Below, piece after piece: positions 38,026-38,799 of a stretch of 52,062 nt of DNA. How positions within the stretch are numbered: the first letter of the stretch is position 1; the number at the start of each line of letters is the position of its first letter. This stretch comes from a virus (taxonomy: Duplodnaviria > Heunggongvirae > Uroviricota > Caudoviricetes). Both the position numbers and the translations under genes were made by a program. The notes under the pieces were generated by a model. It made no database searches. It was given only the letters and a program-made list of their open reading frames with translations, and was not told the origin of the DNA. The stretch lies in the IMG/VR virus record IMGVR_UViG_2531839330_000009. One strand, written 5' to 3'.

Positions 38026-38799
38026 TCAAAAATTAGGTGAGTAACGGACCGGGGACATAGCTCCTTTTTTTCTTAATTCATCTGGTATTTTTTTTCCAAG
38101 ATAAAGATTTGCTATTTCAGGTGGGGCTTCTCGACCTTCAAAACCATAGCGAGAACTTTGTGTTGCCTCAAAGTCCGGATCCTCGTCCCAGTATTTCATC
38201 GTAGGGAAATTTTCACGTGTTGATTTGAGCCATTTATCAGCAATGAAAACCCCTCGAACGATCCCCCTTACAGTAGCAAGAATGACTTCTGCTTGGCTGG
38301 CGCGAGAGACATTAATGCGCCAGCTAAATCGAACCGCATCATAAAGCTCTGAATCCTTTGCACTTCTGTTAACGGAAATCATTAATGCTTTATGATGAAA
38401 TGTTATGGTTTCGGGTTGATATGTTGCTATCAACTCTTTGACATGCGCGGCGCCGAATTCATTGCTGCCAGCACCATTCATGATATTCGTTAACCCAGGG
38501 TAGGCATCAATAAGTGCTGCTTCGACTTCGTACGCCGTCTTTTCATCAGTCATTCCGTGTCGATGGATGACATGGATAACCTCAAGTCCTGCTAACCTTA
38601 TTTCTCTAATTTGCTTTAGCTTGTTGCTCAGTAACTCGTCATCATCAGTCGCTGCCACTTCACCGCGCATATGGGCAAATACGCGGTTACCTTTGCCTTT
38701 CCCTACATAGAAGGTGCTTCCGTCCCTCGGATCAATCAATCGGTATACATACCAGCCAAGGTGTTCAATTACTCCAGAAGGAAACTCAGTAATATCCAT
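38026..38799 (-). CDS. GIY-YIG domain nuclease-like protein
   Basis: 257 aa from internal [32 protein letters not shown] fits the GIY...YIG motif. Confidence 0.55.

Follow-up and report, generated by a model that had tools for sequence, protein, structure and literature searches.

A predicted CMoRE/PD-T4-3 family nuclease at the att-proximal end of an SfV/e14-like prophage of Escherichia coli

The IMG/VR record IMGVR_UViG_2531839330_000009, a stretch of 52,062 nucleotides referred to here as the window, carries on its minus strand, at 38026-38799, an open reading frame (ORF) of 257 residues. Judged by its sequence, the product can be assigned with high confidence to the CMoRE/PD-T4-3 family and is effectively the same protein as the CMoRE enzyme already described, whose role is very probably the direct destruction of T-even-type phage genomes by a prophage-borne nuclease. 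The original prediction for this ORF, made before any database search, recognized a GIY-YIG nuclease and left three roles open. The defence effector is the one documented for a CMoRE protein that is 98.4% identical, while the homing endonuclease and the toxin are not upheld. CMoRE is a known enzyme, and its occurrence here is an ordinary find.

Identity and conserved residues

The ORF starts at the ATG at 38799, with the residues MDITEF, and ends with SPNF in front of the stop codon at 38026-38028. The longest mechanical version of the frame starts further back, at a TTG at 38850; the ATG at 38799 is the start used in RefSeq for identical copies, in the constructs that were crystallised and in the alignment of homologues. 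The GIY-YIG motif first read as YVYRL...FYVGKGK...R is present as described, in the form Y17-V-Y19-R-L, F30-Y31-V-G-K-G-K and R39, and Pfam PF22945 (LEM-3-like GIY-YIG) matches residues 28-110 with 54.2 bits at a cut-off of 27. The generic Pfam GIY-YIG model, PF01541, stays below its threshold on this ORF (13.9 vs 22.6), and the NCBIfam library has no match to it and gives it no curated name.

Two family models match over the full length of the protein: the PADLOC profile for PD-T4-3 (PDLC04031), which covers residues 1-256 of 256 with an E value of 2.4e-140, and PHROG 5356. The product is identical at 253 of 257 positions (98.4%) to PDB entries 9U75/9U8D, described as 'E. coli O157:H7 PD-T4-3, 5hmC specific restriction endonuclease', and about 85% identical to 9U7U/9U7Z, from strain APEC (avian pathogenic E. 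coli) O1. It is 100% identical to a protein cluster of 1045 member sequences (P0001) and to WP_000355484.1 (loci L001 and L002), a protein annotated in O157:H7 strain FRIK944 and in many other strains. Rather than clustering with a non-nuclease family, the protein groups with the characterised nuclease CMoRE/PD-T4-3.

All residues named by Liu et al. are kept when numbering starts from the ATG at 38799 (Y17, Y19, Y31, R80, V92, L96 and Y127). Among 40 homologues, aligned down to 53% identity, the motif residues Y17, Y19, Y31 and R39 are invariant, as are H43, E93, N105 and Y127, so that the motif assignment withstands alignment. By analogy with the GIY-YIG family, R39 and E93 are probably the catalytic Arg and Glu. 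Acidic residues in the lid loop also occur in the homologues, and the loop has low pLDDT (predicted local distance difference test) values in the structure model. Since the residues of the published work are reproduced here, and those of the motif together with Y127 are invariant in homologues, the protein is placed with high confidence in the CMoRE/PD-T4-3 family. Compared with the O157:H7 protein (9U75), the domain order, the motif, the acidic loop, Y127 and the V92/L96 interface all match. The distinguishing features found are the full-length profile, the three tyrosines, the acidic loop, the domain containing Y127 and the single-component organization. As to the last of these, a 1.03-kb cassette (37965-38994) contains the CMoRE gene only, with no partner, and recurs in strain H2 with other neighbours. 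The features of the gene that are needed below are as follows.

38635-38646, minus strand: codons of D52-D53-D54-E55, the acidic run of the putative autoinhibitory lid loop (from the sequence; role from PMC12923530)
38029-38439, minus strand: C-terminal modification-sensing domain (predicted), residues ~121-257, including Y127, the position in contact with the 5-hydroxymethyl group
38800-38994, minus strand: non-coding stretch of the 1.03-kb cassette upstream of the gene, with boundaries from the strain H2 match

The C-terminal region had been taken for an uncharacterised stretch of about 170 residues. It is shorter, about 137 residues (~121-257), and it has been characterised, in a crystal structure with 5hm-dCTP. 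Its fold resembles that of PUA-like readers, and the similarity is weak.

Mechanism, related systems and alternative roles

PD-T4-3 was renamed CMoRE by Liu et al. (Nat Commun 2026; PMC12923530). According to their account, it was first recovered from ECOR68 in the selection of Vassallo et al. 2022 (PMC12923530); the string 'PD-T4-3' is absent from the main text of the latter paper. Under their native promoters, the O157:H7 and Klebsiella pneumoniae genes lower the plating of T2, T4 and T6 by about 10^5, while the APEC O1 gene is much weaker unless it is driven by a T7 promoter (PMC12923530). Cells with the wild-type gene grow normally at a multiplicity of infection (MOI) above 1, with T4 DNA depleted and host DNA reads unchanged, and Liu et al. 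state that non-abortive behaviour has likewise been attributed to the ECOR68 protein (PMC12923530). The purified enzyme binds and cuts DNA containing 5-hydroxymethylcytosine (5hmC) or glucosyl-5hmC, leaving DNA with C or 5-methylcytosine (5mC) intact; T4(C) escapes and T4(hmC) is restricted (PMC12923530). Cleavage follows the pattern CN11/N9G with 2-nt 3' overhangs and requires two modified sites, and PvuRts1I is named as a comparable 5hmC tool enzyme (PMC12923530).

The N-terminal GIY-YIG nuclease of CMoRE has an extra tyrosine (GIYxY-YIG), and mutants of Y17, Y19 and Y31 are all defective (PMC12923530). Between helices alpha2 and alpha3, a 15-residue acidic loop covers the active site, and the 4A mutant of this loop is toxic and cuts ordinary DNA (PMC12923530). 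The enzyme is a tetramer, built as a dimer of dimers, in which the V92S/L96S substitution abolishes both oligomerisation and defence (PMC12923530). In the crystal structure, 5hm-dCTP is bound by the C-terminal domain and hydrogen-bonded to the Y127 main chain; the authors place 5hmC on the domain's edge and not in a pocket, and they report no structural homologue of the domain (PMC12923530). Two independent studies are in accord with this: a Capnocytophaga homologue with 48% identity to PD-T4-3 degrades the DNA of Mu and the modified DNA of T4 and spares that of T4-GT7 (PMC12366544), and deletion of chromosomal PD-T4-3 from the clinical isolate NILS69 makes it sensitive to T-even-like phages (bioRxiv 10.1101/2024.12.20.629700).

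The mechanism proposed for the window's protein is taken, step by step, from this literature on the 98.4%-identical CMoRE (PMC12923530). Its C-terminal domain would bind DNA carrying 5hmC or glucosyl-5hmC and would ignore C and 5mC. A dimer within the tetramer would read two modified cytosines with a spacing of about 21 bp, and the N-terminal GIYxY-YIG domains would cut between them at CN11/N9G, with Mg2+ or Mn2+, leaving 2-nt 3' overhangs. Covering the active site, the acidic lid loop would repel ordinary DNA and so protect the host chromosome. The predicted outcome is that incoming T-even-type phage genomes are destroyed directly and non-abortively. In the lysogen, the allele found here would be expressed from its own promoter, presumably located in 38800-38994, with the same specificity.

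Among known systems, PvuRts1I and AbaSI are parallel in function, in that they also restrict DNA depending on 5hmC or glucosylated 5hmC (5ghmC), but their nuclease fold is different. Cleavage by these enzymes, hmC N11-13 / N9-10 G with a 2-nt 3' overhang, has nearly the geometry of CMoRE. The combination that defines their family, a PD-(D/E)XK Vsr-like nuclease with an SRA-like domain, is not found in the ORF product. EcoKMcrA of e14 is, like CMoRE, a single-gene type IV modification-dependent nuclease and occupies the same slot, directly 3' of pinE and before the attachment site (att); it differs in being annotated as 5-methylcytosine-specific, or methyl-directed. McrA uses an HNH nuclease. 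When the window is compared with e14 by blastn, the match ends at the pinE stop codon, and no homology between CMoRE and McrA is detectable. The likeness of CMoRE to the PUA-like readers (EVE/YTH/ASCH) of the VcaM4I/TagI type and the archaeal McrB N-terminal-domain type is weak, and those readers pair with HNH or McrC, whereas the nuclease partner in CMoRE is GIY-YIG. The GIY-YIG domains of Eco29kI, Cfr42I, UvrC and I-TevI are without the extra Tyr, the 15-residue acidic lid and the modification reader of CMoRE.

Nothing observed contradicts this mechanism, and the following points limit it. The O157:H7 allele that was crystallised (9U75) and assayed differs from the ORF product by four substitutions (T51A, E55D, Q169K and N196H). 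The differences at T51 and E55 lie in or beside the autoinhibitory loop, where the crystallised allele has DDDD and the ORF product DDDE at residues 52-55, although the four-residue acidic run is kept. Upstream of the gene, on its own strand, a scan for sigma-70 and terminator consensus sequences gave no promoter above threshold, and no Shine-Dalgarno sequence is obvious before the ATG. The level of expression is therefore one that we infer. A candidate promoter read by eye, TTGTGA-N17-TAATAT at 38860-38832, is sub-threshold, with 8/12 matches. Finally, one T-even-like phage escaped natively expressed PD-T4-3 in NILS69 (bioRxiv 10.1101/2024.12.20.629700), and therefore the protection given by CMoRE may be partial.

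Alternatively, the gene might be a silent or decaying leftover of a defective prophage, inactive in its host strain: the portal gene of the prophage copy has an amber codon, the cargo region is a mosaic that includes insertion sequence (IS) and tRNA fragments, and the upstream scan gave no consensus promoter. This is very unlikely, since the ORF has its full length and every key residue, and hundreds of genomes retain copies that are identical or nearly so. It is common for defence morons to persist longer than the prophage that carried them. In addition, the native-promoter O157:H7 and K. pneumoniae genes give about 10^5-fold protection (PMC12923530), and NILS69, a native host, shows activity of its chromosomal PD-T4-3.

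Two other roles were initially entertained. As a toxin or abortive effector, it would degrade host DNA after infection and kill the cell, and a nuclease with an autoinhibitory element, carried in a prophage cargo slot, whose 4A mutant is toxic and cuts ordinary DNA, has some of the expected attributes. However, cells with wild-type CMoRE grow at an MOI above 1 with host DNA unchanged and T4 DNA depleted, and the adjoining features are pinE and a tRNA fragment, with no antitoxin-like neighbour. This role is extremely unlikely and was rejected, as the published growth and host-DNA data point the opposite way and only the lid mutant is toxic. As a free-standing GIY-YIG homing endonuclease, the protein would cut a specific site in genomes lacking the gene, which would then be copied in by repair. 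The shared catalytic fold and the names given in annotations are the sole points in its favour, and those attached to jumbo-phage homologues are names only. Pfam finds no zinc finger, NUMOD or helix-turn-helix (HTH) module in the ORF product, its C-terminal domain instead reads modified bases and has a PUA-like resemblance, the near-identical CMoRE spares unmodified DNA and cuts hmC DNA throughout the T4 genome wherever two modified cytosines are suitably spaced (about 21 bp), and the gene forms a stand-alone 1-kb cassette in the cargo slot of a prophage, rather than residing in an intron or at an intergenic homing site. With a reader-type C-terminal domain and published cleavage of modified DNA, homing is vanishingly improbable and was rejected.

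The prophage and its cargo slot

The window derives from E. coli: proA is followed by tRNA-Thr(CGU) (thrW) at 1369-1444 and then by a minus-strand integrase gene (1459-2622). The 46 nt that end thrW recur as a direct repeat at 40857-40902, and the two att repeats bound an element of 39.5 kb; the CMoRE gene therefore lies inside an integrated element. Late genes for a P27-type small terminase, an HK97-type head and a Mu-type contractile tail (sheath, tube and baseplate) match SfV/e14-like prophages of other strains, and 40731-40903 matches the attP flank of SfV, SfI, SfII and SfIV. On this gene content, the element is classed as a thrW-integrated SfV/e14-like prophage and not a lambda-like one. 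The placement in a prophage right arm stands, in the sense that the gene is at the accessory, att-proximal end, while the term 'b-region-like' first applied to it is no more exact than an analogy. The neighbours named at the outset, a pinE-type invertase, a tRNA fragment and an AraC regulator, are all present. The features of the element and of the DNA beyond it are listed below.

1399-1444: attL, the last 46 nt of thrW
35883-35908 and 37324-37349: 26-nt inverted repeats bounding the Pin-invertible segment
36384-36650: ORF of 88 residues in the invertible segment
36650-37384, minus strand: glycine-rich domain protein of 244 residues (PF21722) in the invertible segment
37375-37965, plus strand: pinE-type serine invertase (Pfam Resolvase and HTH_7)
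~38976-39041, plus strand: tRNA-Ser(CGA)-like 3' fragment of ~66 nt, read from the sequence; the matching segment of phage SerU-LTIIb is annotated as tRNA-Ser
39615-40367, plus strand: AraC-family regulator (Pfam)
40409-40636, minus strand: rve_3 transposase fragment (Pfam)
40857-40902, plus strand: attR, repeating the 46 nt of the thrW 3' end in direct orientation
42237-42794, minus strand: second serine recombinase, beyond attR
44726-45352: HTH protein beyond attR
47758-48789 and 49173-51074: large ORFs of 343 and 633 residues beyond attR

The right end of the prophage is a mosaic. SfV/e14-like baseplate and tail-fibre sequence continues up to 35903, and the content of the invertible segment (35883-37349) is unlike that of related prophages, being without homology to loci L001 and L002 or to e14. 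The pinE gene is 92.6% identical to e14 pinE at the nucleotide level; this homology stops at 37967, the pinE stop codon, directly after which the cargo slot starts. The CMoRE cassette (37965-38994) recurs in strain H2 at 97.4% identity with different flanks, namely a gene for tail-fibre assembly and, at the opposite end, a Dcm-type methyltransferase, with DarTG nearby. Its gene has a G+C content of 0.44, compared with 0.51 in the body of the prophage. A second module follows, of which 38980-40622 is 99% identical to the lambdoid phages ev099, PhiR70_1 and mEp332; in these phages the module (38976-40622 here) sits between the tail-fibre genes and int. It looks like att-proximal lambdoid cargo recombined into an SfV-like prophage at thrW. 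For the tRNA fragment at ~38976-39041, ARAGORN finds no complete tRNA and Rfam gives only sub-threshold matches; from this fragment one might guess that serU was the attachment site of the donor lambdoid phage. CMoRE is a typical moron in an att-proximal cargo slot.

Between the tail-fibre and pinE genes and att, the slot (window 37966-40856) takes interchangeable cargo, here CMoRE and the AraC module. In K-12 e14, the same slot (L004 6241-7413) holds mcrA, which encodes a type IV restriction enzyme, and in SfV (L005 2392-4924) it holds gtrV-gtrB-gtrA, also on the minus strand. Among 5426 complete E. coli genomes, 570 have pinE joined to CMoRE and 330 have it joined to mcrA. Searching the literature for pinE/mcrA as a described 'defence hotspot' gave nothing specific. 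It is conceivable, if somewhat short of probable, that the pinE-att slot is a dedicated exchange slot for type IV nucleases and that the CMoRE sensor is a very divergent member of the PUA-like group (EVE/ASCH/YTH/SRA), whose readers serve other type IV enzymes. If so, CMoRE would be a domain-shuffled relative of known reader-nuclease fusions and not an independent invention.

Other parts of the window have features of their own. The portal gene (~20546-21787, plus strand) has an in-frame amber TAG at 21188, which over 601 nt is the sole change relative to HB-Coli0, a strain whose portal gene is intact and has GAG (Glu) there; owing to this amber codon, the prophage copy is probably unable to make particles. 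In the early region, 8359-8481 contains about six repeats, TCAAAATCTGACNCG-like and spaced by 15 nt, which may be an iteron-like origin or binding sites for a replication protein. Beyond attR, 41000-52062 could represent a further element or island integrated at the thrW array; at the corresponding position, O157:H7 FRIK944 has a P4-like satellite. Pfam and PADLOC give no matches for the 343- and 633-residue ORFs, and PADLOC recognises no known defence protein in the AraC gene or among the ORFs past attR.

Distribution and significance

At a threshold of at least 95% nucleotide identity, the CMoRE gene is present in 838 of the 5426 complete E. coli genomes (~15%), and a search of 5.8 billion proteins returned 6562 homologues at E <= 1e-5. 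Eight E. coli records of non-mobilisable 'plasmids' of 18-68 kb (H99-H106, for example NZ_CP146678.1, 64 kb) carry the gene at 96.5-100% identity; these copies may be excised or circular forms of the prophage, or assembly artefacts. In the collection of isolated phages, megablast finds no close copy over the CMoRE gene, and the tblastn matches are all below 60% identity.

Full-length homologues of 38-46% identity occur in the jumbo phages Moabite and 2050HW of Serratia, OBP of Pseudomonas and N1M2 of Klebsiella. Those of Moabite (gp009, L007 2501-3262) and OBP (OBP_165, L008 2492-3250), for which identities of 40-47% were obtained and whose records name them endonuclease or 'putative homing nuclease', are without the acidic DDDE run of the lid; both keep Y17, Y19, Y31, R39, H43, E93, N105 and Y127. 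These jumbo-phage proteins may serve as weapons of one phage against another. The slot shared by mcrA and CMoRE, the PUA-like ancestry of the sensor and the lid-less jumbo-phage homologues are modest leads and not findings.

Publications from 2022 to 2026 already describe the protein with its structure, mechanism and phage range, and PADLOC and DefenseFinder flag CMoRE automatically. Its presence predicts that the source strain resists T-even-type phages with hmC or ghmC (glucosyl-hmC) DNA, which bears on host-range predictions for phage therapy. The prophage described here is a further case of one that carries anti-phage cargo in its att-proximal slot.
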